IMG/VR virus record: IMGVR_UViG_3300028571_000830
Location: 1 to 64,000 of that record
Length of the DNA: 64,000 nt
From: a virus
Reading direction: 5' to 3' (one strand)
Within the stretch, counting starts at the first letter, position 1. Every line of letters starts with the position of its first letter. The notes beneath the pieces were generated by a model that was given only the letters and a program-made list of their open reading frames with translations, had not been told where the DNA came from and searched no databases. The position numbers and the translations under genes were made by a program. This document shows positions 1,090 through 63,075 of this stretch, one piece after another.

Positions 1090-3030
1090 ATGGCAAAAAA
1101 ACAAAAAGAAAATGGTGTTGCTACTACTAACAAATTTCAAGAAGCACTAGACAGGTTAAACAAAACTTATGGTGTAGGATCAATTCTAGAACTAGATAGT
1201 AAGAGAAGTGATAATTATGACATCATTAGTACAGGATCAATTGGATTTGATCACATCACTCTTGGTGTAGGAGGTTTTGTAAAAGGTAAAATGTATGAAC
1301 TACGAGGTTGGGAGGGATGCCTTGCAGAAGACACTTATATTAAGTTTATTAATGTAAGACCTGATGGAATTGTACAAGACTGCAAAGGAGCATCTATTAA
1401 AAATCTTTATGAGAGATTTCATAATAGAACTGATTCAACAAAAGATACGACATTTAATGTAACATCAATTAATGAAGAAAATAAAATCTTTAGAAATGAA
1501 ATTGCAGACGTTGTTAAATCTGGAGTAAAAGAGTGTTTTGAATTAACGACTTCTCATGGATTTAAAATTAAAGCAACTAAAGATCATAAGTTCTTTGTAG
1601 GTGATAGTTATGTAGCTCTTAGTGAATTAAAAGTGGGAGATGTAGTGTACATTCATAAAAATACCCCATATAAAAATGATGAAATTTCTGAAAGAAAAAA
1701 ATATGCAGAAACTACATTAAAATGGTATTATAAAGGGACCCCTAGAGAGATAAATGGTAGTATGTATTATAGAGAAAAAGTTCATAGGCTTATATTTGAA
1801 GCTAATATGAACAATATGTCTTATGAGCAATATACTAATTATTTAAATGGAAATTTACAAGCTAAGCCTGAAGATGGTTGGGATTTTTTGACAATTCCTG
1901 AAGGATATGATGTGCATCACATTAATGAAAATACTAGTAATAATGATATAGAAAATTTACAATTATATAGTAAATCTGAACATGCAAAATTTCATGCTTT
2001 AGATAGACACAATAATCTTAGATTCGTTGTTACAGAAGATACAATAGTTAGTATTACATTAGTAGGAGAAATGGAAACATATGACATTAAATGTTATTTT
2101 CCTTATAATAACTTTATTGCTAATGGAATAGTAGTTCACAACTCAGGGAAATCTACTATATGTGGACATGCTGTAGCTGAGTGTCAAAAGCAAGGAGGTA
2201 AAGTGTTGTATATTGATGGCGAGTATGCTGTTGATAAAAAATACTTCCAACAATTAGGTGTTGACACAACTAAAATGTTAATAGCTCAACCATCATGTGG
2301 TGAAGAAGGTTTTAACATTGCTATGGAAATGATTAACACAGGAGAAATAGATCTTGTTGTTATTGATTCTGATAGTTCATTAATTCCTAAGAAGATGCTT
2401 GATGGTGAGGTGGGAGATTCTACAATAGGTAGAAAAGCTTTATTAAATAGTAATGCTTATCCAAAACTAAAAGGTGCTCTATCACAACATAATGTTTGTG
2501 TTATAGTTATCAGTCAGTATCGTGAGAAGATTGGTGTTATGTTTGGTAATCCTACAACAACTCAAGGAGGACATGCTCTTAAGTTTTATAGTGATTGTAT
2601 TATAGAACTAACTAAAACAGGAGCAAAAGATGGTGATTTTCAATATGGTAATGTTACTAAAGTGAAATCTATTAAGAATAAAATGTTTCCTCCATATAGA
2701 AAATCAGAATTTGAGATTGTATATGGTGTAGGTATTGATAAGTTTAAAGAAATCATGGAGCTTGGTAATGAGTATAACATTTTACGTAAGTATGGTAAAA
2801 CTATCACTTATTCTGATGTTAAATATCAAGCAGACGAATTTGAAGAATTACTATCTGATAATCCTGAGTTCTTAGATTCTATAACTAATGACATTATAGC
2901 TAAGATTAAGCTTATAGATGCTCCAGAAGTGATAGAAATAGAAGAAGAAGAAGAAACAACTATTGTTACCACTGCAACATTTTCTTATAGTAACCAATTA
3001 TCACAACAAGAATTAACTGAAGAATTATGA
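1090..3030 (+). CDS. recA: RecA-family recombinase (about 371 aa extein) interrupted by an intein
   Basis: ISTGSIGFD, P-loop GWEG/SGKST split by the intein, YIDGEYAVD, Walker B LVVIDS, QYREKIGVMFGNPTTTQGGHALKFY, KNKMFPPYR. Confidence 0.95.
   Translation: MAKKQKENGVATTNKFQEALDRLNKTYGVGSILELDSKRSDNYDIISTGSIGFDHITLGVGGFVKGKMYELRGWEGCLAEDTYIKFINVRPDGIVQDCKGASIKNLYERFHNRTDSTKDTTFNVTSINEENKIFRNEIADVVKSGVKECFELTTSHGFKIKATKDHKFFVGDSYVALSELKVGDVVYIHKNTPYKNDEISERKKYAETTLKWYYKGTPREINGSMYYREKVHRLIFEANMNNMSYEQYTNYLNGNLQAKPEDGWDFLTIPEGYDVHHINENTSNNDIENLQLYSKSEHAKFHALDRHNNLRFVVTEDTIVSITLVGEMETYDIKCYFPYNNFIANGIVVHNSGKSTICGHAVAECQKQGGKVLYIDGEYAVDKKYFQQLGVDTTKMLIAQPSCGEEGFNIAMEMINTGEIDLVVIDSDSSLIPKKMLDGEVGDSTIGRKALLNSNAYPKLKGALSQHNVCVIVISQYREKIGVMFGNPTTTQGGHALKFYSDCIIELTKTGAKDGDFQYGNVTKVKSIKNKMFPPYRKSEFEIVYGVGIDKFKEIMELGNEYNILRKYGKTITYSDVKYQADEFEELLSDNPEFLDSITNDIIAKIKLIDAPEVIEIEEEEETTIVTTATFSYSNQLSQQELTEEL
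1318..2142 (+). mobile_element. Intein (275 aa) with HNH-type homing endonuclease, inserted in the RecA Walker A motif
   Basis: Begins C-LAEDT (block A), has block B ATKDHKF, ends TYDI...NFIANGIVVHN followed by Ser +1. Internal KVHRLI...DVHHINENTSNNDIENLQL..KSEHAKFH is an HNH motif. Confidence 0.93.
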
Positions 3031-4545: not shown

Positions 4546-4835
4546 TGGAAAAAGGATTTAAAACATTGAAGGGTGTCAGAGTGATGCTTTCAATTCCAAA
4601 GAAAGAAGAATCAATTATTCAACTAGATCCAAAAACAAAAAAGGAGATGGATAAAGAATTTGTAGAGAGTTTTAAAAGTCTTGAAGTTTATGCTGTAGGT
4701 GATGCTGTTGACTTTGTCAATGAAGGAGATAAGGTGTATGTTCCTACAGAAGATCTGCAAAAAAGTATACTTGTTACTGTTAATGGTGAGCAAAAACTTA
4801 TTATTAACTCTTTTAGTATAGCAATTATCTGGTAA
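4545..4835 (+). CDS. GroES-like co-chaperonin
   Basis: 96 aa; LKGVRVML...SIIQL...EVYAVGDAVDFVNEGDKVYV...IAII matches the Cpn10 layout. Confidence 0.65.
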   Translation: MEKGFKTLKGVRVMLSIPKKEESIIQLDPKTKKEMDKEFVESFKSLEVYAVGDAVDFVNEGDKVYVPTEDLQKSILVTVNGEQKLIINSFSIAIIW

Positions 4836-5590
4836 TGAATTATCCTTTCATATCTGCAAAATGCATCACTTATGGAAGAGTGTCTACGTTGGAGGAATCT
4901 ATTTATAGTTTTCTCCAACAAGACTATCCTGGTGAAAAGGAATTGATCATAGTTAATGATTACCCTCTACAGAAATTGATATTTGATCATCCAGAGATTA
5001 AAATAATCAATCTAGATGAAACATTTGATACAATTGGAGATAAAGAAAATTATGCTATTGAATTATGTAAAGGAGAATTAATTGCTGTATGGGATGATGA
5101 TGATGTTGCCTTACCAAATCATTTAAGTAACATAGCTAAATACTGGAAAGAAGATACTAATTTATTACATTGGCAAAGAGGGGTGTATTACAATGCTCCT
5201 AATATTACAGACATTGTATCTATTGGAAACTCAGGAATAGTATATAGCAAGAAAGCTTGGGAGGCTATTGGTAAAAGTCCTATTGAAAATGCAGGAGGAG
5301 ATATGTCTTTAGTAATAAGAATACATAATCTTGGAAGAGAACAAGTTGTTCTTGCATCTCCTCCAGATGATGAAGTGAGTTGGTTTTATAGATGGGGAGG
5401 AATAGATGTGTATCATCAATCAGGACAAGGACATGATGTTCCAGGAACAGCTAATGCTATTCAAAGACATTCTCTATTTATTGAACAGAAAAGACAAAGA
5501 GGACAAATACCAACAGGAGATGTTGTATTAAATCCTAATTGGAAATATGATTATGTACAAATGTTAAAATCGTTCAATGAAAATAAATAA
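4835..5590 (+). CDS. Glycosyltransferase family 2 (GT-A)
   Basis: ITYGR, SFLQQDY, ELIIVND, GDKEN, IAVWDDDDVALP. Confidence 0.85.
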   Translation: MNYPFISAKCITYGRVSTLEESIYSFLQQDYPGEKELIIVNDYPLQKLIFDHPEIKIINLDETFDTIGDKENYAIELCKGELIAVWDDDDVALPNHLSNIAKYWKEDTNLLHWQRGVYYNAPNITDIVSIGNSGIVYSKKAWEAIGKSPIENAGGDMSLVIRIHNLGREQVVLASPPDDEVSWFYRWGGIDVYHQSGQGHDVPGTANAIQRHSLFIEQKRQRGQIPTGDVVLNPNWKYDYVQMLKSFNENK

Positions 5591-10574: not shown

Positions 10575-10988
10575 CTAAGAAAGTGTTAATAGATATTTAG
10601 TTTTAGCTGCTTCTCCTGATAATGCATCTGCTAAGTTACATATGTCATGAAACTTATTAGCTTCACCATATGCTTTTAAATCAGAAGCAAACATACCTAA
10701 ATCTTTTACAACATCCATAGAGGATGCATTAGATAGAGGATCAATCTTAAATACACCAGGACGTTTACCTAAATATCCCATAAGCTTCTCTACTACATCA
10801 TCTTTAAAATCTTGTACATATTCATACAATTTTCCTAAAGCTTTATGTGTAGCATACGAAGTTGTTTGCCAGTGCAATAGATGTAATTGCTCATGAAAAT
10901 ATGTAAGCTTTCCAGCTATAGTTTCTAATGTCAATTCTTCAGAGGATGATGCTTTCATCATCTCTTCTGGAAAGAATGATTTTGCCAT
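10575..10988 (-). CDS. Ferritin/Dps-like four-helix-bundle protein
   Basis: LHLLHWQTTSYATHKALGKLYE...DDVVE and C-terminal KTKYLLTL match the phage Dps-like pattern. Confidence 0.8.
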   Translation of the reverse strand: MAKSFFPEEMMKASSSEELTLETIAGKLTYFHEQLHLLHWQTTSYATHKALGKLYEYVQDFKDDVVEKLMGYLGKRPGVFKIDPLSNASSMDVVKDLGMFASDLKAYGEANKFHDICNLADALSGEAAKTKYLLTLS

Positions 10989-10993
10989 AGTTT

Positions 10994-11236
10994 TTATCCT
11001 CCTATAGTGGTGGTAGTAGTTGTTGTAGGAGCTACAGTTGTAGTGGTTGTAGTAGTTGTAGGAGCCACTGTAGTAGTTGTGGTGGTGGTATAATTACAAC
11101 ATTCATATGCTGTAATTTCTTGCCAATTACCCACTTTAGGTTTATTTTTTCTAAGAATAAGAGATCCTGCTACCACTCTACCAGTTCCATCAAATCTTAC
11201 ATACGCTTTTAAGCGTTGATTGTTACCATTTGCCAT
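10994..11236 (-). CDS. Small protein (80 aa) with C-terminal mucin-like poly-Thr tail
   Basis: MANGNNQRLKAYVRFDGTGRVVAGS...ECCNY-T8-VAP-T8-VAP-T7-IGG; start at ATG 11236. Confidence 0.8.
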   Translation of the reverse strand: MANGNNQRLKAYVRFDGTGRVVAGSLILRKNKPKVGNWQEITAYECCNYTTTTTTTVAPTTTTTTTTVAPTTTTTTTIGG

Positions 11237-11328
11237 TTTAATTTTTTTTTTTTTAATTTGTGAATAAAAATTTTCTTTATGTATATAAATTAAGATGAAG
11301 ACTTCTAGCAACCAGGGCTACAAAATCT

Positions 11329-12351
11329 TTATTCATATTTAAGGTTGTATTTCTTCTTTAATTCAAGAAGTTGTTGTAGATAATAATGATTGCAATGTTT
11401 TTTAGAAATGTCATTATTTAATACATCTTGCAAATGAGGATCATCAAATGGATCTTTACCAGTGTGATATGTTCCTTTATAAAAAGCTGGATAGCTTCCT
11501 CCCATAAATGGATCAGTTATTCCTGCATTATGTAATATAGTTGTTCTTTCAAGTTTCTCAATAGGATCAGAACTCCAAGCAAATTCCATATCTGGAGTGA
11601 TTATTGTTTGTCCTTCTCTTTTCCAGATGTTCCAAAGTACAGCCCACATATCAGCACACCAACTTTGAAATCCTTTATTCTCATTTTCAAAGAACTCTTG
11701 ATTGATATTTCTTAAGTGTGTACGTATAAGTAAACAACTTGTCATTACATCACTCCAGAATTTTTCATCTACATTCTTTAATAGATATTGAGCTCCTCCT
11801 GAATGTAAGTTATTAGCTTCTGCTATTTCTCTTGATATACCATTTAGAGATGTAATCTCTTGTAGTATGTCTCTTTCTTTATAAGCTTCTAGTTTATCTG
11901 GAAGGACATCTTTTATCTTACTATCAAAATATGAAGCATTGATGTAACTGTTTGTATCTGATAGATAACTTATATCATCATCTATATACTTATCAATATT
12001 GAATTTCTCTGTAAAAACTATATCGCTATCACAATAGAATACAGCTTTATCTTTCATTTCAGGATGGTCTCTAAAATATCTCATTAGAACATAAGGTCTA
12101 ATGATTGGTATATAGATGCCTAGAAGTTTACTCACTTTATCTACATCTTTATAGAAAACAAATTCTGTTTCTGGATATAGGTTAATAACCTGTTCCCATC
12201 TAGTATTCTTTTCTCTAAAGTCAGGGATGTATATTAATACAGTGGCTTTATTTGAATGCCCAAGTTTTTTTAAACTTTCAAGCCATAAATGCACCTGCCA
12301 TGTGTAATAGGTGTCATCTGGTTGGGCACAAAGAAATCTTAATTCCTTCAT
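11329..12351 (-). CDS. GT-A glycosyltransferase resembling plant peptidyl O-glycosyltransferases (HPAT/GT95, SGT1/GT96)
   Basis: YYTWQ, YIPIIRP, DxD (YCDSDIVF), WCADMWA, ILHNAG in the order seen in HPAT/SGT1 (YxxWQ, NR/KP, DxD, WxxEMY). Confidence 0.65.
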   Translation of the reverse strand: MKELRFLCAQPDDTYYTWQVHLWLESLKKLGHSNKATVLIYIPDFREKNTRWEQVINLYPETEFVFYKDVDKVSKLLGIYIPIIRPYVLMRYFRDHPEMKDKAVFYCDSDIVFTEKFNIDKYIDDDISYLSDTNSYINASYFDSKIKDVLPDKLEAYKERDILQEITSLNGISREIAEANNLHSGGAQYLLKNVDEKFWSDVMTSCLLIRTHLRNINQEFFENENKGFQSWCADMWAVLWNIWKREGQTIITPDMEFAWSSDPIEKLERTTILHNAGITDPFMGGSYPAFYKGTYHTGKDPFDDPHLQDVLNNDISKKHCNHYYLQQLLELKKKYNLKYE

Positions 12352-12378
12352 ATATGTAGTTATTGGTTTATTACAAAA

Positions 12379-12576
12379 TTATAAAGTTGTTGTAGTAGTA
12401 GTTGTAGGAGCTACAGTTGTAGTTGTAGTGCTTGTACTAGTACTGCTGCTAGTTGTAGTAGTGGTAGCAGGAATGTTCCTACCCATCACTCCTGTTAAAG
12501 CTTCTAATTGCTTAGATATCTGCCAAAGTAGTTTAGCCTTTTGGCTCCAGCCAATTTGTTGAGAAGGTATTGCCAT
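12379..12576 (-). CDS. Small protein with Thr/Ser-rich tail
   Basis: N-terminus paralogous to 12586-13095; C-terminal TTTTTSSSTSTSTTTTTVAPTTTTTTTL. Confidence 0.75.
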   Translation of the reverse strand: MAIPSQQIGWSQKAKLLWQISKQLEALTGVMGRNIPATTTTTSSSTSTSTTTTTVAPTTTTTTTL

Positions 12577-12585
12577 GTTATTATT

Positions 12586-13095
12586 TTAAGCTATTTCGTA
12601 TGTTCCTGAGATATCAAAATGACTTGTTACAGTAGTTCCTCCCACTGGTGTATTGAATTTCCAGTTTAAATCTGTTGTAGATCCTGAATAATATAATTTA
12701 TGTATTGTTGGACTAACTACTACATCTGTAACACCAGCGATGTGATATAAAGAATTCCCAGTTGTTTGATGCAACGTACCATTAGCTTGCCTCATTGTTT
12801 CTATAGATGGAAAAGGTAATGTTATTTGATATTGTAATGTACCAAAGTTAGTACAACCAGCAAAGTCTACATACACTCTAAAATAGCAAATCTTTGATGC
12901 TATCATTGTATATGAACCTGTTGCTGTAACACCAGCCAACGTTCCAGAAGCATCTGTAAACAATGGATTAAACGATTGAGGTATTGTATTTTGTGAATTA
13001 TAAGTCACCCTTGTAAGATATTCTAATTGCTTAGAAATTTGCCATAAAAGGTTTTCTTCTGTTCCCCAGCCTATTTGTCTATTTGGTATTGACAT
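12586..13095 (-). CDS. Putative virion decoration/fibre protein with beta-sandwich C-terminus
   Basis: IPNRQIGW...LLWQISKQLE N-terminus; GSYTMI...ITLPF...ISGTYEI receptor-binding head-like pattern. Confidence 0.65.
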   Translation of the reverse strand: MSIPNRQIGWGTEENLLWQISKQLEYLTRVTYNSQNTIPQSFNPLFTDASGTLAGVTATGSYTMIASKICYFRVYVDFAGCTNFGTLQYQITLPFPSIETMRQANGTLHQTTGNSLYHIAGVTDVVVSPTIHKLYYSGSTTDLNWKFNTPVGGTTVTSHFDISGTYEIA

Positions 13096-13351: not shown

Positions 13352-13942
13352 TTACTTTATATCTGAAGATTCAATTAAAGTGTATGTGAATGAATTGCCA
13401 TGTATATCTTTAGCTTTTCTTATGATAGCCATAAATTCATCAAAATCAGCAGCCTTCTTAAATACTTGGCATCCTTCTGACCAATTTTCTACATAGGTTG
13501 AATCAGCTCCAGCTTTATGGATGTTAATACCAAACACACCTTCTTGAATTTTTGATTCATCATAAGTCATGTCTTTATTAGCATCACGATAAACCTTAAC
13601 TTCTTTAGCTTGTTTTAAGGCTTCATATTTACCTTGATGTAAACCAATTACATGAGAGCCTCTATATTGCCCTTCAACAAGCCTTGCCACTCCTGCAGCA
13701 TTATGAAACTCTTTAACGCCTTTAGTACCAGGATCTGTTGTTGCCATCCATGAATGGAATTTCCATTTACCATCTACCTTGTAAGATAATGTCATAACAT
13801 CATCAAATACGTTTGTAACTTTCTGATCTGTTGCAGAATTTCTTACACCTACAATATTAACATCAAAATCTTTATCTCCCTCAAACCAAACATACCCTTT
13901 TGCCTTTACTGATTCTTCTATTTGTTCTTTAGATAGTTTCAT
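13352..13942 (-). CDS. Putative endolysin (L,D-transpeptidase-like His/Cys catalytic motif)
   Basis: ATTDPG, VYRDAN, FGINIHKAG...WSEGCQV; located next to holin- and spanin-like genes. Confidence 0.65.
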   Translation of the reverse strand: MKLSKEQIEESVKAKGYVWFEGDKDFDVNIVGVRNSATDQKVTNVFDDVMTLSYKVDGKWKFHSWMATTDPGTKGVKEFHNAAGVARLVEGQYRGSHVIGLHQGKYEALKQAKEVKVYRDANKDMTYDESKIQEGVFGINIHKAGADSTYVENWSEGCQVFKKAADFDEFMAIIRKAKDIHGNSFTYTLIESSDIK

Positions 13943-14153
13943 TTTTCTTCTTAAATATTTTTTCAGCAGATGTTAAACCTAAGCAACCAAAAGCCAACAA
14001 GGCTACTGACTCAACCAATATTGCAGATGGTGCGGTATGTTCCTCACTAAAGGAGTTATGATACATAGTCACACATAAAGCTATAACACAAAGCAATCCG
14101 CATAAACGCTTCATGCTTAGACTTCCACTTTCATCACAAAAAAACTGTTTCAT
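13929..14153 (-). CDS. Putative holin (2 TM)
   Basis: SMKRL + TM, second TM, basic C-terminus; adjacent to the endolysin. Confidence 0.6.
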   Translation of the reverse strand: MKQFFCDESGSLSMKRLCGLLCVIALCVTMYHNSFSEEHTAPSAILVESVALLAFGCLGLTSAEKIFKKKNETI

Positions 14154-14488
14154 TGTACTGTATCCTTTTTACTTTTACCCCAGAAGTTTTTCTTTTCTGT
14201 AACAAAAACAGTATCCCTAACAGTATCAATTTGAATTTGTACTCTTGGATTTGCTTTTATTTCAGCTACCTCACTAAACAATTGTTTAATCTGTTTTTTA
14301 TCCTCAATAATACTTTCAACAGTTTTGTTAATTATTTTAGCTTCTTTCTTTGTAGCCTCAACAATACTACTATCCATCTTTAATTGACTTTTAGCAACTT
14401 TTAATAGTAAAGTATCGTATTTTTTTACCTGCTCGGGTTCAGTTGTTGTACACGAACTTATGAAAAGTATGAATACTAAATATCTCAT
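14150..14488 (-). CDS. Putative lipoprotein (spanin-like)
   Basis: Signal peptide with lipobox FISSC; coiled coil. Confidence 0.6.
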   Translation of the reverse strand: MRYLVFILFISSCTTTEPEQVKKYDTLLLKVAKSQLKMDSSIVEATKKEAKIINKTVESIIEDKKQIKQLFSEVAEIKANPRVQIQIDTVRDTVFVTEKKNFWGKSKKDTVQ

Positions 14489-14784
14489 TTGATTTTCTGA
14501 ATTTTACCTAATGATTCCAATGTGCTTAACTTTGCAGATGCTCCACTCATTGCACCTTCGCACTTAATTAATGATTGACTCATAGCATCCATTTTAGCTT
14601 CAAGTTTCTCGATTTTTGCTCCTTGATTATCAATTTGCTCATGAAACGTGCTTCTAATATCAATGTATAAAGCACTAATGCCAATGATTACTAAGAACAT
14701 TGTACCCACCACTGGGTTTTTACTAAAATCCTTAAAATTTATTGGTAAAGGATTTGTTAAATTTACTTTTTCTTTGATTGCCAT
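14485..14784 (-). CDS. Single-TM coiled-coil protein (lysis cassette)
   Basis: One TM followed by heptad repeats. Confidence 0.55.
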   Translation of the reverse strand: MAIKEKVNLTNPLPINFKDFSKNPVVGTMFLVIIGISALYIDIRSTFHEQIDNQGAKIEKLEAKMDAMSQSLIKCEGAMSGASAKLSTLESLGKIQKIK

Positions 14785-15543: not shown

Positions 15544-15591
15544 CAAAGCTAAGTATTAGTTTTGAGAATTGCAAATGTTTTTTTACATTTG
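15544..15591. promoter_or_regulatory. Overlapping divergent Bacteroidota sigma-A-type promoters
   Basis: Plus strand: TTTG(15561-64)-19 nt-TACATTTG(15584-91). Minus strand: TTTG(15575-72)-20 nt-TAGCTTTG(15551-44). Confidence 0.7.
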
Positions 15592-15612
15592 ATGAATAAA
15601 ACCAATTCTTAT

Positions 15613-18573
15613 ATGTCATCTGATATAAAATTTGAAAAAGCATATGTATTATATGCAAATGCAGCTTATTTTGAAACAGTGCTATCTTGTGTAAAATCTA
15701 TAAAGACATTTAGTGATGTTCCTATTATTGTTTACATGCTTAACTCTAAGTTAAAGATTGATGGAGCTCTTACAATAAATTGGGAATGTGACGTAGATAT
15801 CATTCATAAACAGAAATATATAGATAGAACGAATGATAAAGTGTACAAGCTGTTGATACAACGTCCACTTATTGTTAAAGATGCTCTAATGAATTATGCC
15901 AAATCTGTTGCTTATATAGATGCAGATAGTGTAGCTACAAAATATGTAGACAATATATTTACAATGTTTGATAATGATTCTACTCATCCATATTTTGTAG
16001 AAGGTATGTATGACTATTTATTAATTAATGGTAGAGGTGGGGCAGTTAGTAGAAAAGATCTATCTACAACATTAGAACATCCAGCATGTGAGTTATTTAA
16101 TGTTAACCAATATGTAAGACAGAAATATAGACAAACTGGTTATTTTGTATCTGGACAGAATTGTGTAGAGTTTTTAAATGAGTGGTATGCTATGTGCGTT
16201 CATCCAGAAGTGTTAGCTAATTCTTCACATTATGCTCCCTATCACGAAGAAACTATTGTTAATGTTTTATTGTGGAAGAAGAATATACATGTAGGTCTTC
16301 CATACATGTATATTAATGGATCATATGATACTATCAATGAAGTGTATGACACTATTGGATTTAATGGTAGAGACAACACTGTTAGAGAATGGGTAAAGAT
16401 TCCTAAGACTAAATCAAATTTATTATTCTTTCATGGAGAAAAAAATGGTACAATTATGAATAAAATGATAGCTAAACTAAATAGTAAATTAAAAATATTA
16501 TTTCTAGCACCTCACTTATCTACAGGAGGAATGCCAGCATTCTTATTGAAAAGAATAGAAGCTTTACAAACCTCTGGTGATGTTGATATATTTGTTGTAG
16601 AGCATCAATGTTATAGTCTTGATTATGTTGTACAGAGAGAGCAAATTAAAAACCTTGTTCCTGTTCATACACTATATGAAGATAAGAATGAACTATTTCA
16701 AATTATACAACAGTTCAAACCAGATGTTATTCATATAGATGAAATGTCTGAAAGATTGGATAGGGAAATGATCGTATCATTATACAATCAAAACAGATCA
16801 TATCGTATCATTGAAACTTGTCATGATGTATCATTCAATCCAAATGATAAAATATTTCATCCAGATGCGTATGCTTTCTGTACACCTCATCACTTAAAGA
16901 CATTCAATAACACAGATTCTTATAAACAAGTGATTGAGTTTCCAATAGAGCATTTGAAGAATAAAAAATGTATATGGGATGAAGCTATGTTTGATCTAGG
17001 ATTTGATTTCTCAAAAGAACATGTTGTAAATGTTGGACTGTGGACTTCAGGAAAGAATCAGAAAGAAGCTGTTGAACTAGCAAGACAAATGCCTGATGTA
17101 CAGTTTCATTTTGTAGGAAACATGGCTCCCAATTTTAAAGAATACTGGCAGCCAATACTTTTAAATCTTCCAGATAATTGTAAAATATGGGGAGAACGTG
17201 ATGATGTTTATAAATTCTTAATGGCTTCAGATGTATTTATGTTTAATAGCACTTGGGAATGTAATCCTTTAGTTATTAGGGAAGCTATTGGTCATGAGTG
17301 TAAAATCTTAGCAAGAAATCTACCACAATATTGTGGAATGTTTGATGAATACATTACACCAATAGGTGATAACTTAAAAGAACAATTAGAAGAAGCTTTA
17401 GAACAGCCTGTTACATACACTATTCCCACTGATGGATTTGTAAATTTTAGAGATGATCATATTACTTTATATAAACAAGTGGTTAGTAATGCTACCCAGA
17501 TGAGTAATGTAACTATTGTTCATCATTTTGTTAATAATCCATTTCTTGAAATAAAAGGAATTTCTGATAGTGTATTTAAAATATGTTTTTACGATGAACA
17601 TGATGTTCTACAATACCAGAACACTGTAAAAGCTAATCATTGGGTGAGGCTAAATAGACAATGGTATACCAAGTGGACAACTAAAGTGTGGGAGAATGAT
17701 GAGTTGATATTTAATCAATCTCTTGATTTATCTAATAAGAGAGTGTATATAGCCTTTGGTAGCTCCTCTCTTGGAGATAGTATAGCCTGGATACCTTATT
17801 GTTTAGAGTTTAAGAATAAACATAATTGCGATGTTATTGTAAGTACATTCCATAACTATTTATTTGAGAGTGTATATCCAGAACTTGAATTTGTATCTAA
17901 TGGAAGTGTTGTAGAAAACATATATGCTCAATACAACTTAGGGTGGTATTATAATCTGGATAAAGAACCTGTGACACCTCCTAATATAATACCATTACAA
18001 CAAACAGCTACAAACATATTAGGTCTTGAATACAAAGAGATTAAGCCTAGAATTGCATACACTCCTGGTAAGAATATATACTATAAGAAAACTGTTACAA
18101 TAGCTACCAACTCCACAGCTGGGTGTAAGTTTTGGACCAAAGAAGGATGGCAACAATTAATAAATCATCTATATAGTAATGGGTACGATGTAGTGAATAT
18201 ATCCAAAGAGGAAAATCCTTTTGATAATTGTTATCAGATTGTTGATAAGTCTATAGAAAATACTATGAATGTAATACATCATAGTGAGTTCTTTATAGGA
18301 CTATCTAGTGGATTAAGCTGGCTAGCTTGGGGAATGGGTAAACAAGTGGTGATGATTGCTAACTTTAGTGAAAAAGACCATGAGTTTAGTTGTATCAGGA
18401 TAACAAATGATAAATTGTGTCATGGATGTTGGAACAATCCTGATTATAAATTTGATAAGGGGGATTGGGATTGGTGCCCCAAACACAAAAATACCCCTAG
18501 ACATTTTGAATGCCATAGGGGTATATCTGCAAAACAAGTGATTGATAGTTTAGTCTTTCTTAAACACTTGTAA
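15613..18573 (+). CDS. Three-domain glycosyltransferase: GT-A (DxD) + GT4-like GT-B + TibC/AAH-like protein O-heptosyltransferase domain
   Basis: YIDADS/HEETIVN/FFHGEK; LAPHLSTGGMP/KNQ/ECNPLVIREA; SSSLGDSIAWIPY, FIGLSSGLSWLAW, CHGCWN...WCPKH...FECH. Likely start is ATG 15613, downstream of the promoter. Confidence 0.85.
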   Translation: MSSDIKFEKAYVLYANAAYFETVLSCVKSIKTFSDVPIIVYMLNSKLKIDGALTINWECDVDIIHKQKYIDRTNDKVYKLLIQRPLIVKDALMNYAKSVAYIDADSVATKYVDNIFTMFDNDSTHPYFVEGMYDYLLINGRGGAVSRKDLSTTLEHPACELFNVNQYVRQKYRQTGYFVSGQNCVEFLNEWYAMCVHPEVLANSSHYAPYHEETIVNVLLWKKNIHVGLPYMYINGSYDTINEVYDTIGFNGRDNTVREWVKIPKTKSNLLFFHGEKNGTIMNKMIAKLNSKLKILFLAPHLSTGGMPAFLLKRIEALQTSGDVDIFVVEHQCYSLDYVVQREQIKNLVPVHTLYEDKNELFQIIQQFKPDVIHIDEMSERLDREMIVSLYNQNRSYRIIETCHDVSFNPNDKIFHPDAYAFCTPHHLKTFNNTDSYKQVIEFPIEHLKNKKCIWDEAMFDLGFDFSKEHVVNVGLWTSGKNQKEAVELARQMPDVQFHFVGNMAPNFKEYWQPILLNLPDNCKIWGERDDVYKFLMASDVFMFNSTWECNPLVIREAIGHECKILARNLPQYCGMFDEYITPIGDNLKEQLEEALEQPVTYTIPTDGFVNFRDDHITLYKQVVSNATQMSNVTIVHHFVNNPFLEIKGISDSVFKICFYDEHDVLQYQNTVKANHWVRLNRQWYTKWTTKVWENDELIFNQSLDLSNKRVYIAFGSSSLGDSIAWIPYCLEFKNKHNCDVIVSTFHNYLFESVYPELEFVSNGSVVENIYAQYNLGWYYNLDKEPVTPPNIIPLQQTATNILGLEYKEIKPRIAYTPGKNIYYKKTVTIATNSTAGCKFWTKEGWQQLINHLYSNGYDVVNISKEENPFDNCYQIVDKSIENTMNVIHHSEFFIGLSSGLSWLAWGMGKQVVMIANFSEKDHEFSCIRITNDKLCHGCWNNPDYKFDKGDWDWCPKHKNTPRHFECHRGISAKQVIDSLVFLKHL

Positions 18574-18862: not shown

Positions 18863-19264
18863 TTATTTAATTACAACATTTTCTGTAGTTGTAGATGTTG
18901 TTGTAGTGGTGGGTTCAACTATTGGCTCAACAACAGGAGCCCAAGGTAAAGGTAAAGTAACCTCCACAGGATTAATTTGTAAAGCAATATTAGCTTCTAA
19001 TCCTAATTTCATATCTTCAACAGGCAATATTTTCTCTAACCAACTTATCACTTCCTCTTCCGTTACATCTTCATAAGGTATAAAGTTTTGAGGATTAGGT
19101 TGTGATACGCTTGAAGAACCATAAATGTCTGCAAAATATGTCTTATCGCCATCTACTTTTGTGGCGTTATATCTCCAATGTATTACATTAATAACATTTG
19201 GTAATCCTTCTGATTCTACTACACAATTTAGTTGGGCAATTACCCATTGAAAGTTTGTTTCCAT
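18863..19264 (-). CDS. Tail-fibre-associated protein with poly-Thr C-terminus
   Basis: W.I..L...IHWRY...FIPYEDVTEEEVISW pattern common next to phage fibre genes; ends EPTTTTTSTTT. Confidence 0.7.
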   Translation of the reverse strand: METNFQWVIAQLNCVVESEGLPNVINVIHWRYNATKVDGDKTYFADIYGSSSVSQPNPQNFIPYEDVTEEEVISWLEKILPVEDMKLGLEANIALQINPVEVTLPLPWAPVVEPIVEPTTTTTSTTTENVVIK

Positions 19265-19265
19265 A

Positions 19266-21713
19266 TTATTTTATTAATGTTTTTAATTCTTCTATTTCTG
19301 CTTTTAATTCTTGAATTGCCTTGATGTATACTGCATGAAGCTGATCATAATTAATACCCATTTTATCAGTTGATGGAGTTGTAAATACTGCTTCTGGTAT
19401 TATTTCTTCAATTTCTTGTGCTATATTACCATTCTGTCTACCTTGACCAAAGTTTTTGTATTCATCAACAAATTCAAACCAAATAGGATTCATTTTCATG
19501 ATTTCATGTAATCCGTATCCAATAGGCTTAATATTTTGTTTTACAGATATATCAGAAACTGGAGCAGATAAATTACCACTTGCATCTGCTAATACTGCTC
19601 TGCTTCCCGTGCCTGCTAAATTCACTATTGTAACTACGCCATCCGAATCCATTGAGAATTTTTCATTGCCTTCTTTGTAAATTCTAAAAATATTAGATAC
19701 TACAGCAAGCGAGTAATTATTAGCACCTTGTGTTAATACTAATCCCGAATTACTACCATTTGAAATATTTAAAACCCTTGCAAGTCCTGGGGGATTAGAG
19801 ATAGTTGAACTTCCTATTCCGACATCACCACCTGATGTGATACGCATACGTTCTGAAAGTGTTGATGCTGTTACTGTAAGAAACGTTAAATATCCAGAAG
19901 TTTTTGAAGCTTCAAGTGCCCCTAAAATTGCCGCACCTGTTGTAGGTACAGAACTCCCATTTAATGCTCCTAATCTAATATATATTCCTGCATCAGAAGC
20001 GGTACTAAAATTTCTATAAACACCTAATCCTTCTGCATCATTATTATCTAATATAGTTAAACGTTGATTAATATTAGAATTTGTTCCTATACCTACGTTA
20101 CCATCCCTTGCAACAGTAAGACGATTTAATCCTGCCGTTACTAAGTTTATAACACCACCCGTAACATCTCCTGCGTTAATATCTATTCTTCCAGTTCCTA
20201 CTGCTTCATTACCAAAAAGGTTAATTCCTGCACCTCTATCTGAACCCCTTGCACCACCCCCGTTTATAGATACAAATTTATTGTCAGAGCCGTCTGTTGT
20301 GTTTGAAACTATACCTCTGTCTGTTGTGTCGAATATTACATTCCCACTAAACGTAGCACTTGTACCTACTAATGCTCTGCTCACCAATGTAACAGTAGTT
20401 CCATCATCAGTGATAGCACTATCGCCTATTGTACTTGCACCTGTAAATTTAGGTAGAGTGTTTGTTGTGCCTGTTCCTGTTATTTGATTTACAGGTGTTG
20501 TTCCACTACTTCCTGATGTTCCTGAACTACCACTTGTTCCTGTTGAACCTGAAGTTCCGCTAGTTCCTGAAGTACCGTCTGTTCCACTAGTACCTGATGA
20601 GCCACTAGTACCTGTTGTTCCTGAAGTTCCACTAGTTCCAGAAGATCCTGTTGTACCAGAGGTGCCAGATGTACCATCTATTGCAGAGGTTCCACTTGTT
20701 CCTGTGGTACCACTTGTGCCTGATGTACCTGATGTACCTGTAGTACCAGATGTTCCAGTGGTACCAGATGTACCATTTGTACCATCTCCACCAGAAGCAC
20801 CATCAAGATTTACATACCATATAGGGAAACTTCCTGATCCAACAGTTCTTGTAGGAGCAGCAAATATTAATATTCCTGTTAAAGGATCATAAGATATCAC
20901 TTCACATTCTTGGAAGTTATTAGCATCTCCTGCTATAATTATAGATTGTGCTACTGAGTAAGACAATCCTAAACCCACTGTTAATGTTCCTGCGTTACCT
21001 AAAACAAAACTTGTTACAGAAGTGGTGGCATATCTATCTCCTTGTATTCCTGAGCTTCCTGATGTACCAGATGTAGCAGAAGAACCACTTGTTCCAGTGG
21101 TGCCTGATGTAGCAGATGATCCACTAGTACCTGATGTAGCAGACGAACCACTAGACCCTGATGTTCCACTAGTACCAGAGGTAGCAGAGGTTCCAGAGGT
21201 GCCTGTTGTACCACTAGTTCCTGTTGTTCCAGAAGTACCTGTGGTTCCACTTGTACCAGATGTTCCATTTATTCCACTAGTACCAGAAGATCCACTAGTA
21301 CCTGTTGTACCACTTGTTCCACTGCTTCCATTTGTACCATCTATTCCACTAGTTCCACTTGTTCCATCTATACCACTTGTTCCACTGGTTCCTGAAGTTC
21401 CTTTTGTACCTGAAGATCCACTTGTACCTGTAGTACCAGATGTGCCACTTGTACCTGTTGTACCTGACGTACCAGAAGTTCCTGTGGATCCAATAGATCC
21501 ACTAGTTCCAGAACTACCAGAAGATCCAGAAGATCCTGATGTTCCACTAGTACCAACAGCAATAGCTCCAATAGCAGCATCAATTTTTTGAAGAGCTAAT
21601 TGAAGATTGTCGTTAGTATTAATTCCTGTATATACTAAATTAGCTCCTTCGTAATGTACACAAAGAGCATTTAGTATGACAGGACAAGGAATAGCTTGAC
21701 AAAGAGTATTCAT
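19266..21713 (-). CDS. Tail fibre with two (Gly-Thr-Ser)n collagen-like blocks and C-terminal intramolecular chaperone (peptidase S74-like)
   Basis: GNVGIGT and RMRITSGG fibre repeats; SDISVKQNI...GNIAQEIEEIIPEAV...INYDQL...AIQELKAEIEELK. Confidence 0.85.
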   Translation of the reverse strand: MNTLCQAIPCPVILNALCVHYEGANLVYTGINTNDNLQLALQKIDAAIGAIAVGTSGTSGSSGSSGSSGTSGSIGSTGTSGTSGTTGTSGTSGTTGTSGSSGTKGTSGTSGTSGIDGTSGTSGIDGTNGSSGTSGTTGTSGSSGTSGINGTSGTSGTTGTSGTTGTSGTTGTSGTSATSGTSGTSGSSGSSATSGTSGSSATSGTTGTSGSSATSGTSGSSGIQGDRYATTSVTSFVLGNAGTLTVGLGLSYSVAQSIIIAGDANNFQECEVISYDPLTGILIFAAPTRTVGSGSFPIWYVNLDGASGGDGTNGTSGTTGTSGTTGTSGTSGTSGTTGTSGTSAIDGTSGTSGTTGSSGTSGTSGTTGTSGSSGTSGTDGTSGTSGTSGSTGTSGSSGTSGSSGTTPVNQITGTGTTNTLPKFTGASTIGDSAITDDGTTVTLVSRALVGTSATFSGNVIFDTTDRGIVSNTTDGSDNKFVSINGGGARGSDRGAGINLFGNEAVGTGRIDINAGDVTGGVINLVTAGLNRLTVARDGNVGIGTNSNINQRLTILDNNDAEGLGVYRNFSTASDAGIYIRLGALNGSSVPTTGAAILGALEASKTSGYLTFLTVTASTLSERMRITSGGDVGIGSSTISNPPGLARVLNISNGSNSGLVLTQGANNYSLAVVSNIFRIYKEGNEKFSMDSDGVVTIVNLAGTGSRAVLADASGNLSAPVSDISVKQNIKPIGYGLHEIMKMNPIWFEFVDEYKNFGQGRQNGNIAQEIEEIIPEAVFTTPSTDKMGINYDQLHAVYIKAIQELKAEIEELKTLIK
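20497..21554 (-). repeat. Two blocks of 9-bp-periodic Gly-X-Y (GTS/GTT/GSS) repeats (about 21040-21554 and about 20497-20800)
   Basis: Gly at nearly every third residue; synonymous codons vary. Confidence 0.95.
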
Positions 21714-22417: not shown

Positions 22418-23233
22418 CTAGCAATCAATTCCTGTATCAGAAGTTAATTCTCCTGTTCCTGAGTTCATATAGTAAATATCTGGTGAACCTGATGCACGTA
22501 CTACATAGTCAAAGCCTGTCACTGGATTTGTAAGAGCAGTATCATAGAATATAAAGTCACCACTAGTTAACAATATACTACTTGAGTAAACTGTATAACT
22601 AGGGTCTGTACATATGGTTCCTAAATTATTACTAGGTCTTACTACATAAGTATAATATACTGGAGGAGGAGGAGTGGTAGTAGTTGTAGTTGTTGGAGGA
22701 ACGATAGTGGTGGTGGTAGTTGTTGTCGAACCACAACATTGTGTACTAAGATTAAATGATGAATTTGAAGCAAAAATTTTAGTTATTTCTAATGGAGAAT
22801 CGTAATAATATAAATAAGGGTCAGGTGTAGGTATTGCAAATGAATACACACAAATAACATCGTTATATATTCCAGAACTTGGGAACGTATATGTTGCTGT
22901 TACTGCACCTGCTCCAGCACAAGTAAAATAATCAGCATAAACAGTTAAGTTATATGATGCTCCAATATCTAAAGAAGATATTGTGAATCCATAGTATTCA
23001 CAATTACAAGAAGCCGCAACTAAGTCTGATTTAACCACTAATTGATTACTAGCCTTTGCTGCATAAGGAGCATAGCCAGTATCTATATTAACATAATATG
23101 CAGCTTCTGCTTTTGTTATTTGTTTTGTACCTGCAGGTATAGTATTTATTAAAGTAAATACAGAAGTGTTTACAGCATCCTGTAAATTATTAAGTGATAC
23201 GCATTGATTAGATGCTATTCCTGCCCAACTCAT
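22418..23233 (-). CDS. Cys-rich virion protein with poly-Thr linker
   Basis: NQLVVKSDL motif; CCGSTTTTTTTIVPPTTTTTTTPPPP linker between domains. Confidence 0.75.
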   Translation of the reverse strand: MSWAGIASNQCVSLNNLQDAVNTSVFTLINTIPAGTKQITKAEAAYYVNIDTGYAPYAAKASNQLVVKSDLVAASCNCEYYGFTISSLDIGASYNLTVYADYFTCAGAGAVTATYTFPSSGIYNDVICVYSFAIPTPDPYLYYYDSPLEITKIFASNSSFNLSTQCCGSTTTTTTTIVPPTTTTTTTPPPPVYYTYVVRPSNNLGTICTDPSYTVYSSSILLTSGDFIFYDTALTNPVTGFDYVVRASGSPDIYYMNSGTGELTSDTGIDC

Positions 23234-23234
23234 A

Positions 23235-24977
23235 TTAGTTTAACTTAGCTTTTAGTTCCCTTATCTCTTGCTGTAACTGAGCAATTAATATAGTGTGTAC
23301 ATCTAAATATTTAACTGAGGTTACATCCCTGTCTGTTAGTTCAGGCATTAATAAATGTATCTGCTCTGCAGAATAACCATATCTTACATCCTTATTTACA
23401 TCAGTTTTACGTATATATTGTATAACATCTAAATTAAGATTAGTTGATGGATTTGTTTTAAGTATATTTTTTCCTGCAACGCTTGAACTTTCAAAGAATG
23501 CTGAGGCAGTTACACTGCTACTAAATGAAGCAGATGTACCCCCTAGAGCACCAGTTAATGTTCCACCACTTAATGGTAAATATCCACTAAGAGCAGCTGA
23601 TGTTATAAATCCTGCAGGATTTGAAGAATCATATGGAGTGTATCCAAGAGCACTTGTAACTTGTCCAGATGTAAGTGTTAAAGTTCCTCCTAACGTTAAT
23701 GATCCAGATGTACTTACTGAACCTGAAAGTGTAATTCCACTAACAGTGCCTGTTCCAGATATAGATGTAACTGTACCAACATTCCAAGTTCTATCTGCAG
23801 AAAGTGTTTGAGCATTTCCATTTATTGTAAGAGTTCTTGATGTAGGTACACCACCTAGTCCTGCTAATGTGTAATTAGGAACATTTAATACATTACTTAA
23901 TAATGTAGCAGCTCCACTATTTCCAGTGGTAGTTAAACTTCCTAATAGCCCACTTGTACCTGATGTACCTGAAGTACCAACAGCTCCTGAAACTCCTGAC
24001 GTGCCACTTGTTCCTGATGTACCAGTGGCTCCTGGTGTACCAGCAGCTCCACTAGTACCTGATGTACCACTTGTTCCTGTATTACCATTAACTCCACTAG
24101 TTCCAGAGGTACCTCTTGTACCTGAAGTACCACTAGTGCCTGTGGTTCCACTAGTGCCTGTGGTTCCACTAGTGCCTGAAATTCCACTCGTACCTGTTGT
24201 ACCAGAGGTTCCATTAATACCAGAGGTTCCATTAATACCAGAAGTACCACTTGTTCCATCTCCTCCCGAAGCACCTGCTAAGTTTACTATCCAAGCTGAC
24301 TGTGTACCAGATCCCACTGTAGTAGAAGGAGCACCAAATTGTAAAGATCCAGTTCCAGGATTGTAAGCAATAACACTAGATTCTTGATAATTACTTATAT
24401 TATAAGCAATAATTATAGTTTGTGCAACACTATATGCTAATCCTAAATCAACTGTGATTGTTCCAGCATTTCCTAAAGTGAATGATGTAACTGATGTTGT
24501 ATAATATTTATCTCCTGATTCACCTGAAGTACCTGTAGTTCCACTACTACCTGATGTACCACTAGTGCCTGTAGAGCCACTTGTACCACTGGTGCCACTT
24601 GTTCCTGTTGTGCCAGAAGATCCACTAGTACCACTTGTACCACTTGTTCCACTACTACCTGATGTTCCTGTTGTACCACTTGTTCCACTACTTCCACTGG
24701 TTCCTGATGTACCATTAACACCAGATGTACCATTGATTCCTGATGTACCATTGATTCCAGAGGTGCCATTAACACCAGAGGTGCCAGAACTTCCTGATGT
24801 ACCTGAAGTACCAGCAGTTCCATTATATGAATCAAATGTATTATTGATTTTTATTAAGGCTTCCTCAAGGGAATCCATAGGATCAACATCTATATTAGAT
24901 AAGTATTCTCCATCATATAACACACATAGAGCATTCTCGTATGTGGCACATGTAGGGCATATAGCTGCGGTTCTCAT
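23235..24977 (-). CDS. Second (Gly-Thr-Ser)n collagen-like tail fibre with degenerate S74-like chaperone C-terminus
   Basis: Same architecture as 19266-21713; YLPLSGGTLTG; FFESS...YGYSAEQI...VKYLDVH coiled coil; likely start ATG 24977. Confidence 0.85.
   Translation of the reverse strand: MRTAAICPTCATYENALCVLYDGEYLSNIDVDPMDSLEEALIKINNTFDSYNGTAGTSGTSGSSGTSGVNGTSGINGTSGINGTSGVNGTSGTSGSSGTSGTTGTSGSSGTSGTSGTSGSSGTTGTSGTSGTSGSTGTSGTSGSSGTTGTSGESGDKYYTTSVTSFTLGNAGTITVDLGLAYSVAQTIIIAYNISNYQESSVIAYNPGTGSLQFGAPSTTVGSGTQSAWIVNLAGASGGDGTSGTSGINGTSGINGTSGTTGTSGISGTSGTTGTSGTTGTSGTSGTRGTSGTSGVNGNTGTSGTSGTSGAAGTPGATGTSGTSGTSGVSGAVGTSGTSGTSGLLGSLTTTGNSGAATLLSNVLNVPNYTLAGLGGVPTSRTLTINGNAQTLSADRTWNVGTVTSISGTGTVSGITLSGSVSTSGSLTLGGTLTLTSGQVTSALGYTPYDSSNPAGFITSAALSGYLPLSGGTLTGALGGTSASFSSSVTASAFFESSSVAGKNILKTNPSTNLNLDVIQYIRKTDVNKDVRYGYSAEQIHLLMPELTDRDVTSVKYLDVHTILIAQLQQEIRELKAKLN
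23940..24822 (-). repeat. Two blocks of Gly-X-Y (GTS/GIN/GVN) repeats (about 24513-24822 and about 23940-24275)
   Basis: Direct translation. Confidence 0.95.
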
Positions 24978-25048
24978 AATATGCAAATTTATTTATTTTT
25001 AATGTATAATTGATTGTTTATCTGTATATAGTTGACATAATATAGCTA

Positions 25049-62469: not shown

Positions 62470-63075
62470 TTAAAAACAATCTGTTTGACCTGATATTACT
62501 AATGTATTACTATAATATGCTGTATATAAATCAGTTGGATTTGACCCTAATGAATACGATAGGTATTTATTATATGCTGCTGTATCATCAAATGGAACTA
62601 ATAGACTACTATCATTAAAGAATTGTGTCACTCCTAAAGAAGTAGTAGATACTGCATACACTGCTAATTGTGGAGATCCATATGAAACCCAACCTGACCC
62701 TGATTGATTACAAGCCTCTCCTGAAATGTCACCATATCCATATAATCCATATAAAGTTCCCTCTACTGGTAGAGTAGTTGTTGTAGTTGTAGTGCTAGTG
62801 GATGTTGTACTAGATGTTGTACTAGATGTTGTACTAGATGTTGTAGTGGTGGTAGTGCCACCAACAATTAAATCAATGTAATTAGTACATATAGAATCAG
62901 ATTTCACTCTTATCACTATAGTTCCATTTGGAACTAAAGAAGAAGTGTATCCTGATACTAAAGAAGCTTTAGGTACATTATTTTCAAAAGGAACTACAAA
63001 TCCATCTACATCTGAATACAAATCAAATGGTCCTGTATCAGAACCTGCTATTGTTAATGTTATTAATACTGTCAT
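62470..63075 (-). CDS. Virion protein: Ig-like N-domain, Thr/Ser linker, C-domain
   Basis: ITLTIAGSDTGPFDLY...CTNYIDL; GGTTTTTTSSTTSSTTSSTTSTSTTTTTTTLP. Confidence 0.75.
   Translation of the reverse strand: MTVLITLTIAGSDTGPFDLYSDVDGFVVPFENNVPKASLVSGYTSSLVPNGTIVIRVKSDSICTNYIDLIVGGTTTTTTSSTTSSTTSSTTSTSTTTTTTTLPVEGTLYGLYGYGDISGEACNQSGSGWVSYGSPQLAVYAVSTTSLGVTQFFNDSSLLVPFDDTAAYNKYLSYSLGSNPTDLYTAYYSNTLVISGQTDCF

Follow-up and report, generated by a model that had tools for sequence, protein, structure and literature searches.

The first 64,000 nucleotides (nt) of the 116,917-bp IMG/VR virus record IMGVR_UViG_3300028571_000830, referred to here as the window, contain a gene for a 340-amino-acid (aa) protein that lies between two genes for mini-proteins with polythreonine tails. 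We propose, with a probability of roughly 0.7, that this protein is a cytoplasmic peptidyl-threonine O-glycosyltransferase which decorates poly-Thr tags on proteins of the phage, and judging by the recurrence of the pairing in unrelated phages the virus probably sugar-coats parts of its own particle. The fold of the enzyme, its catalytic motifs, the order of the genes, and the co-occurrence of enzyme and tag are established and carry this proposal. The record is rated complete by CheckV, has a G+C content of approximately 31 to 33%, and represents a crAss-like phage, in which Pfam recognizes tail ring proteins 1 and 2 and the muzzle protein.

The first-pass annotation, read from the letters of the window, had described an enzyme gene flanked on both sides by small open reading frames (ORFs) with Thr tails, and this layout was confirmed. 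Three consecutive, co-oriented minus-strand ORFs encode proteins of 65, 340, and 80 aa, in order of transcription (Table 1). In the 65-aa protein, the N-terminal module is conserved (MAIPxxQIGW..LLWQISKQLExLT) and leads into a Thr/Ser tail of 27 residues that ends in VAP-T7-L. The 80-aa protein begins with MANGNN and continues through CCNY into T7-VAP-T8-VAP-T7-IGG. Its conserved module of 48 aa reads LKAYVRFDGTGRVVAGSLILRKxKPKVGNWQEI.AYECCN and directly precedes the T7-VAP-T8-VAP-T7 tract. A longer, TTG-started form of this gene would encode 105 aa (10994 to 11311), and the 80-aa length is the form found in related contigs. Judged by their N-terminal modules, which are conserved across contigs whose enzymes are 63 to 95% identical, both mini-proteins are real genes.

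The 340-aa protein matched PHROG 4417 (annotated as function unknown; E = 4.8e-50) and no Pfam family in a scan at E ≤ 1. Searches of solved structures by sequence, with either the protein or its family profile, returned only chance hits. Of 3417 candidates scored in the metagenome protein collection, 2507 were relatives. A threshold of E ≤ 0.001 gave 763 cluster representatives, and 77 phage records carry a homolog, every one below 60% identity. An AlphaFold2 model, for which an alignment of 77 homologs with 30 to 49% identity served as input, reached a predicted local distance difference test (pLDDT) value of 97.6 and a predicted template modeling score of 0.94. It displays the GT-A glycosyltransferase (GT) fold in a single Rossmann-like alpha/beta/alpha domain. 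D108, D110, and H274 were invariant in 77/77 aligned homologs, and the two aspartates of the DxD motif also in 51/51 homologs that are fused to other domains. In the model, the conserved DSD directly follows strand 103-107, past the fourth strand as in GT-A enzymes, and H274 closes strand 272-274, which would place the three residues at the usual GT-A positions for binding of metal and diphosphate.

Foldseek gave glycogenin as the best match for the model (E = 2.9e-6). Alignment to 48,161 chains by VIA-align, with rows no more than 1 Z unit apart counted as ties, placed the retaining GT8-type enzymes glycogenin, LgtC, the WbbM C-domain, and Streptococcus pneumoniae GlyE closest, and a Skp1-glycan galactosyltransferase was among the tied top matches. 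The predicted structure is GT8-like and includes a late histidine of the metal-binding type. In sequence, identity to glycogenin, LgtC, the WbbM C-domain, and GlyE is only 9 to 12%, and the protein has approximately 80 residues more than glycogenin. The GT8 Pfam model was not matched by the 340-aa protein (E ≤ 1) and was found neither among the 2 families of the 77 homologs at E ≤ 0.01 nor among 25 listed of 29 families at E ≤ 10. The first-pass annotation had called the protein a glycosyltransferase, which model confidence, invariant residues, and GT8-type matches bear out. Structure prediction, suggested there as a check, upheld the glycosyltransferase assignment; as to the acceptor class, the best GT8-type matches include protein- and non-protein-directed enzymes in a tie. 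The retaining GT8-like fold suggests that the first sugar would be alpha-linked. No signal peptide, hydrophobic leader, or membrane segment was detected in the 340-aa protein; the chain opens straight into the first strand, with the fold beginning at residue 4, and the enzyme is therefore taken to be cytoplasmic. A predicted complex of the enzyme with the 80-aa mini-protein, with scores of 0.02 and 0.08 where the mark was 0.32, carries no weight either way.

A survey of synteny, likewise suggested with the first-pass annotation, bore out the pairing of enzyme and tag in close relatives as well as in distant carriers. The close set comprised the best 80 of 553 confirmed IMG/VR relatives (enzyme 63 to 95% identical), 76 loci of which were assessable for adjacency. 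A poly-Thr ORF was located at most 150 nt upstream of the enzyme gene at 53 of these 76 loci and at most 150 nt downstream at 54. The upstream ORFs nearly all form one family of 44 to 62 aa (MAIPxxQIGW..LLWQISKQLE and then T-runs), and the downstream ORFs form another (LKAYVRFDGSGRVVAGSLILRKxKPKVGxWxEI.AYECCN and then T-runs). ORFs with a run of at least five threonines (T≥5) numbered 146 at distances of up to 1 kb from the enzyme (153 kb in total for the 80 loci) versus 15 in the other 965 kb, corresponding to an approximately 60-fold higher density near the enzyme.

At some of these loci the Thr tract serves to link extra domains, as in a leucine-rich-repeat-like protein of 537 aa, another protein of 267 aa, and proteins of 133 to 414 aa with several Thr-linked domains. 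Since the tract can connect to further domains, the mini-proteins are, to judge from their architecture, the minimal form of a modular design composed of an attachment module, a Thr tract, and an optional distal domain, and their modules would dock on the virion. At loci L004 to L014, where the enzyme is 92 to 95% identical, the upstream mini-protein was either 45 aa long, with one T-run ending in VAP or IAP, or 52 aa long, with two T-runs; tail length thus evolves faster than the rest of the locus. A further locus (L088), on a 112-kb contig in a Sediminibacterium metagenome-assembled genome bin, encodes an enzyme of 63% identity that is flanked by poly-Thr ORFs. The contig probably represents the genome of a related phage that was binned with its host and, as such, is a clue that the lineage infects Chitinophagaceae.

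The distant set consisted of 11 of the 77 phage records with a homolog, at 25 to 34% identity, and gene names are given as annotated in the records. Thr-rich tails or linkers occurred on head, tail tube, or neighboring proteins in 11/11 carriers, nine of which had strict C-terminal T-runs. In Enterococcus phage phiFL1A, the enzyme gene directly follows the gene for the major tail protein, which has a Thr/Ser-run end, and the major head protein ends in T5-KP-T5-KP-T7-QG. In Lactococcus phage 1706, it starts 26 nt past the major tail protein gene, the product of which ends in T10-HHD, and an upstream 686-aa head-module protein ends in T9-HHD. The enzyme gene of bIL285 comes after that for the major head protein, with the major tail protein, ending in T9-RHD, encoded 1.3 kb further. 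Clostridium phage phiCTP1 has T-run tails on the tail tube protein and one head protein. Small "major tail protein" ORFs, consisting of nearly nothing but T-run repeats, lie ahead of the enzyme gene in Lactobacillus phages Semele and iLp84, and head and tail proteins of the latter end in T7-SK. Staphylococcus phage PT94, Enterococcus phage nattely, and Arcanobacterium phage TPWB06 likewise show the T-run tail pattern. The remaining two carriers are Chryseobacterium phage MA9V-3, in which a gene that lies 6 nt upstream of the enzyme encodes long T/S linkers, and Lactobacillus phage 521B, with a (TTV[KA]P)n tail on an immunoglobulin-domain gene 16 nt upstream. The pattern extends to bacterial assemblies (33 loci), where 6 of 11 stand-alone forms of the enzyme (302 to 351 aa) have a poly-Thr gene approximately 150 nt or less upstream.

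These gene positions bear on an alternative in which the enzyme acts on a non-protein target, either host envelope glycans (for superinfection exclusion or serotype conversion) or phage DNA, and the Thr runs are mere flexible hydrophilic linkers. Thr/Pro linkers are common in Bacteroidota proteins. The glycolipid- or polysaccharide-directed enzymes LgtC and WbbM are among the tied top structural matches, fused bacterial homologs occur without poly-Thr neighbors, and phage-encoded transferases that modify DNA and O-antigen are well established (PMC12619734). However, the enzyme genes of carrier phages sit inside head or tail modules beside genes for Thr-tailed proteins, both in phages of Bacteroidota and in those of several Bacillota genera. 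Many tags are terminal and link nothing, and the enzyme is soluble, with no membrane segment. A loss control was based on the bIL285 tail protein, homologs of which occur in 203 phage records. Six were sampled from the 194 below 60% identity (from phages of Ruminococcus, Exiguobacterium, Streptococcus [two], and Geobacillus and a fecal phage), and the names of these phages are not among the 77 enzyme-carrying records. All six proteins, 45 to 56% identical to that of bIL285, stop right after the conserved core and have no Thr tail, which argues against an action on a target unrelated to the tags. We consider this alternative quite improbable.

In the genome of the crAss-like phage itself, T≥5 runs were restricted to 8 of 465 ORFs (≥40 aa, whole 116,917-bp genome), all on the minus strand between positions 10,994 and 67,580, and thus do not arise by chance. 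Thr codons inside the runs were mixed (ACT, 61; ACA, 61; ACC, 40). A DNA microsatellite origin of the tracts was rejected for this reason, and the tracts are maintained at the protein level. The most prominent tagged protein is the muzzle protein, a tail component of the virion, identified by Pfam crAss_MUZ (E = 6e-31) and by a PHROG virion structural protein family (E = 7e-108). The two flanking mini-proteins had been suggested as substrates of the enzyme in the first-pass annotation. Recurrence in related and unrelated phages strongly backs poly-Thr as the acceptor; "sandwiched" was too narrow a description of the system, with at least eight tagged proteins including the muzzle protein. The tagged 391-aa protein encoded outside the window had no match in PHROG, Pfam, or the PDB, nor does it carry a source name. 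It is 95 to 98% identical in approximately 50 metagenomic relatives among the matches listed (3589 hits, E ≤ 0.001) and is possibly a capsid protein, which is a guess.

Fiber-like architectures were observed next to the tagged genes. Two collagen-type Gly-X-Y fiber proteins (19266 to 21713 and 23235 to 24986, minus strand; Pfam Collagen, E = 1e-30 to 1e-33) are encoded beside the 271-aa Thr-linker protein, and one of the two ends in a Peptidase_S74 intramolecular chaperone domain. Immediately upstream of the 65-aa mini-protein lies a paralog of 169 aa that shares its N-terminal module. The C-terminal domain of this paralog, approximately 130 aa long, is 60 to 90% conserved in 885 metagenomic proteins, where it is attached to at least six unrelated N-terminal modules. 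It looks like a swappable fiber tip, following the mosaic pattern of phage fibers. An AlphaFold2 model of the paralog was of low confidence (pLDDT, 60.2) and predicted the shared N-terminal module as a helix (residues 13 to 32).

Under the proposal of a peptidyl-threonine O-glycosyltransferase, a soluble, metal-dependent GT-A enzyme would most likely move a sugar from a host nucleotide sugar onto the hydroxyls of Thr runs during infection. The runs would be portable acceptor tags carried by several proteins of the phage, namely, the two flanking mini-proteins, the muzzle protein, and at least five further late-region proteins. Modification would take place in the cytoplasm, before or during assembly, and its outcome would be a virion with mucin-like glycosylated whiskers and linkers. 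We infer the acceptor, the sugar, the initiation of the glycan by the 340-aa enzyme, and the binding of the mini-proteins to the virion from the genes and the predicted fold. No epimerase/dehydratase or nucleotidyltransferase family gene was found in the phage genome, and a host nucleotide sugar is therefore the most economical donor. The GT2 enzyme, the 1003-aa multidomain transferase, and the methyltransferase-like protein (Table 1) may extend or trim the glycan, and the last of these possibly methylates the sugar. The C-terminal domain of the 1003-aa protein has a weak Glyco_transf_9 match (E = 2.9e-4; 20.7 bits versus a cutoff of 22).

The presence of further transferases in the window also favors a scheme in which glycosylation of the Thr tags is begun by a different enzyme, either one from the host or one of the phage's own (the GT2 enzyme or the 1003-aa GT1/GT9-like protein), and the 340-aa protein only extends the glycan, as GlyE does on the N-acetylglucosamine of serine-rich repeat proteins. 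GlyE and the Skp1-glycan galactosyltransferase, both glycan extenders, are among the tied top structural matches. In addition, homologs are often fused to GT2 (4 of 51 fused homologs), GT6, GT7C, GT32, or methyltransferases, which points to the building of multistep glycans; radical-SAM/SPASM domains are another fusion partner. What makes an exclusively extending enzyme unlikely in our view is that tag and enzyme family travel together. All five evaluated Firmicute phages, which have Thr tails on head or tail proteins, carry the enzyme and gave no match to the GT2 and GT1 Pfam families, while control models matched in 14/14 genomes. The homolog of the 340-aa enzyme is thus the sole recognizable phage transferase in these five carriers.

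The first-pass annotation had assigned the protein to the plant hydroxyproline O-arabinosyltransferases (HPAT; GT95) and peptidyl-serine galactosyltransferases (SGT1; GT96). The motifs that it quoted are present in the order given, YYTWQ (residues 15 to 19), IRP (84 to 86), DSD (108 to 110), and WCADMW (231 to 236), an order which we take to be that of the plant enzymes. A true enzyme of this type would attach arabinofuranose to hydroxyproline residues of the VAP/AAP spacers or alpha-galactose to serine. Sequence models gave the assignment little support. The Pfam HPAT model (PF23452; cutoff, 23.9 bits) matched neither the 340-aa protein nor, at E ≤ 10, the phage genome. It matched 0/77 homologs at E ≤ 0.01 and 2/77 at E ≤ 10 (best E = 0.012), 0/51 fused homologs, and 0/10, 0/6, and 0/10 further phage or bacterial homologs. 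A PF23452 search that covered the phage genome itself, 5 of the carrier phages, and, among bacteria, 5 genomes plus 401 genomes from a single phylum gave no match either, a weak negative because the control was also silent. Only neighbors in a protein atlas built on a language model carry the label. HPAT is the commonest Pfam label among them, with PF23452 on part of the members in 11 of the 30 nearest clusters and 22 of the 30 nearest named clusters (two listed shares, 10% and 58%).

The type II membrane anchor and the hydroxyproline-acceptor features of the plant enzymes were not found for the 340-aa protein, which folds from residue 4. No 2-oxoglutarate–Fe(II) (2OG-FeII) oxygenase of the prolyl hydroxylase type was found in this phage genome, and several tails contain neither proline nor serine. 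Hydroxyproline was rejected as the acceptor on the grounds that the tails of 1706, bIL285, and PT94 are proline-free and that the genome has no 2OG-oxygenase; the same observations make threonine the more plausible acceptor. We regard a true plant-type enzyme as very improbable. A remote kinship with HPAT may exist, given the atlas neighbors and the two weak hits among the 77 homologs; membership in GT95 or GT96 does not follow from them.

It should be noted that several points weigh against the proposal that the enzyme glycosylates poly-Thr tags. The 80 lineage loci are kin, so their clustering shows conservation and not independent recurrence, and an immediately adjacent poly-Thr ORF is missing at 23 of 76 loci upstream and at 22 of 76 downstream. 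The absence of the enzyme from the six control phages is deduced from the organism tally of the 77 records. The fold is that of a retaining GT8-like transferase and is silent on the acceptor, with protein-, glycan-, and lipooligosaccharide-directed GT8 enzymes tied in the model comparison. In this genome, the glycan could instead be started by one of the other transferases, GT2 or the 1003-aa GT1/GT9-like protein. Attachment of the two mini-proteins to the virion is read solely from their modular architecture. Finally, 0/21 fused bacterial chromosomal forms (451 to 829 aa) have an adjacent poly-Thr gene. These forms were found in Chitinophaga, Sphingobacterium, Pedobacter, Mucilaginibacter, Elizabethkingia, and others (loci L098, L100 to L104, and L106 to L120). 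Poly-Thr is therefore not an acceptor common to all members of the family, and the acceptor of the fused chromosomal homologs probably differs.

Table 1. Enzyme, Thr-tagged proteins, and other candidate sugar enzymes of the crAss-like phage
Feature	Position	Strand	Remarks
340-aa soluble GT-A glycosyltransferase	11329-12351	minus	PHROG 4417, no Pfam family; DxD = D108-S-D110, late His = H274
65-aa mini-protein	12379-12576	minus	27 nt upstream of 340-aa enzyme; ends ...ATTTTTSSSTSTSTTTTTVAPTTTTTTTL
80-aa mini-protein	10994-11236	minus	92 nt downstream of 340-aa enzyme; ATG at 11236
169-aa paralog	12586-13095	minus	N-terminal module as in 65-aa protein; conserved beta-rich C-terminal domain replaces Thr tail
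133-aa DUF7936 protein	18863-19264	minus	Ends ...EPTTTTTSTTTENVVIK; Pfam DUF7936, E = 4.7e-24
271-aa protein	22418-23233	minus	Internal linker T7-IVPP-T7-PPPP; among collagen-like fiber genes
crAss muzzle protein (virion tail component), 1818 aa	52746-58202	minus	Seven T7-T8 runs at residues 1532-1637
201-aa protein	62470-63075	minus	Internal Thr/Ser linker of 28 residues; no Pfam/PHROG family
168-aa protein	63109-63615	minus	58-residue Thr/Ser tract (T-runs; spacers IAP, VAP, QTP) ahead of short C-terminal segment; no Pfam/PHROG family
391-aa protein, outside window	66405-67580 of whole genome (L135:2405-3580)	minus	Thr-rich C-terminal tail ...TTTSTTTTIWPTTTTTSTLIP
GT2-family glycosyltransferase, 251 aa, candidate glycan extender	4835-5590	plus	Pfam Glycos_transf_2, E = 9e-13
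Methyltransferase-like protein, 213 aa	5577-6218	plus	Methyltransf_24, E = 4e-4, 21.6 bits, below 26.3 cutoff
1003-aa multidomain glycosyltransferase, rival or partner enzyme	15562-18573	plus	GT1/GT4-type domain (Glycos_transf_1, E = 9e-8)

Other neighbors of the locus were identified as follows. Directly downstream of the 80-aa gene is a gene for a 137-aa DUF5856 protein (10575 to 10988, minus strand; Pfam E = 1.2e-14), which falls into PHROG 858, a Dps-like "starvation-inducible transcriptional regulator." On the other side, a 196-aa PHROG 3000 protein (13352 to 13942, minus strand) has a weaker endolysin-family match and is followed by small membrane-protein-like ORFs at 13929 to 14784; together these probably form a lysis cassette that adjoins the glycosylation locus. 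Toward the start of the window, a 646-aa RecA-family protein (1090 to 3030, plus strand) is split by an intein that contains an HNH endonuclease domain (Pfam matches to Intein_splicing, to HNH_3, and, in two stretches, to RecA at E = 1.8e-75).

Glycosylation of virions is in itself already known. To our knowledge, the evidence for it in phages rests so far on experiments with mycobacteriophages, whose virion O-glycosylation was reportedly described by Freeman et al. in 2023 in Cell Host Microbe (31:1216). In these phages, phage-encoded transferases place glycans on the C termini of capsid and tail tube subunits (PMC12619734), and a methyltransferase is associated with virion glycosylation (PMC13313380, PMC12894461). 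The present system resembles theirs in gene layout, in that an enzyme is combined with C-terminal tags on head or tail tube proteins, both here and in the Firmicute carriers. A phage transferase gene was found together with putative acceptor extensions on virion proteins, counting the eight Thr-tagged proteins including the muzzle protein and the head and tail tube tags of Firmicute phages. It differs from the mycobacteriophage system in its hosts, which are Bacteroidota (crAss-like phages) and Bacillota, and in its enzyme, which belongs to the PHROG 4417 family rather than to annotated GT families. Moreover, the predicted acceptor is a homopolymeric Thr tag, which is also found on tiny stand-alone proteins.

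Among nonphage systems, the serine-rich repeat adhesins of Gram-positive bacteria are glycosylated by GtfA/B, which initiate, and then by GlyE and others; GtfA is a GT-B enzyme, and the acceptor is Ser-rich. By analogy, the system proposed here would share with it a soluble enzyme that acts on repeats of hydroxy amino acids in the cytoplasm, before assembly or export. The adhesin system differs in that its substrates are bacterial adhesins, not virion proteins, and that its initiating enzyme is GT-B. Plant HPAT and SGT1 carry out peptide-directed O-glycosylation of repetitive Pro/Ser/Thr-rich sequences, a trait that would be shared. Unlike them, the 340-aa protein is soluble and not Golgi anchored, its likely acceptor is threonine, and no prolyl hydroxylase accompanies it. 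PBCV-1, a eukaryotic virus, carries atypical N-linked glycans on its capsid, and the structural match of the model to its chlorovirus enzyme A64R is far weaker than that to GT8 enzymes. Full-text literature searches, with subscription journals mostly outside their coverage, turned up no description of the PHROG 4417 enzymes or of a poly-Thr tag in phages, in agreement with the first-pass statement that no characterized phage member was known. What appears to be new here is that the enzyme comes from a different family, that the predicted acceptor tag is homopolymeric, that the hosts belong to new groups, and that stand-alone mini-proteins carry the tag.

A broader version of the proposal is tentative and, taken as a whole, rather doubtful. 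In it, poly-Thr would be a portable genetic "glyco-tag" served by one soluble enzyme family, from crAss-like phages to sipho- and myoviruses of Bacillota, and mucin-like coats would be common. The mini-proteins would be glycan-bearing whiskers, composed of an attachment helix and a glycosylated tail, and not degenerate fibers, and the family would be a prokaryotic-virus sister of plant GT95/GT96.

If the glycosylation of poly-Thr tags is true, glycosylated particles would be widespread, including those of the abundant uncultured crAss-like phages, and cultured carriers would be available among phages of Enterococcus, Lactococcus, Lactobacillus, Staphylococcus, and Clostridium. A function would be offered for 2507 metagenomic homologs and 77 phage records that are now labeled "hypothetical." A cytoplasmic O-glycosylation system made of one enzyme and one tag would also be a useful tool. 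For the phages themselves, a glycan coat would bear on adhesion to mucus and polysaccharide matrices, on antibody recognition in phage therapy, and on the stability of the particle.

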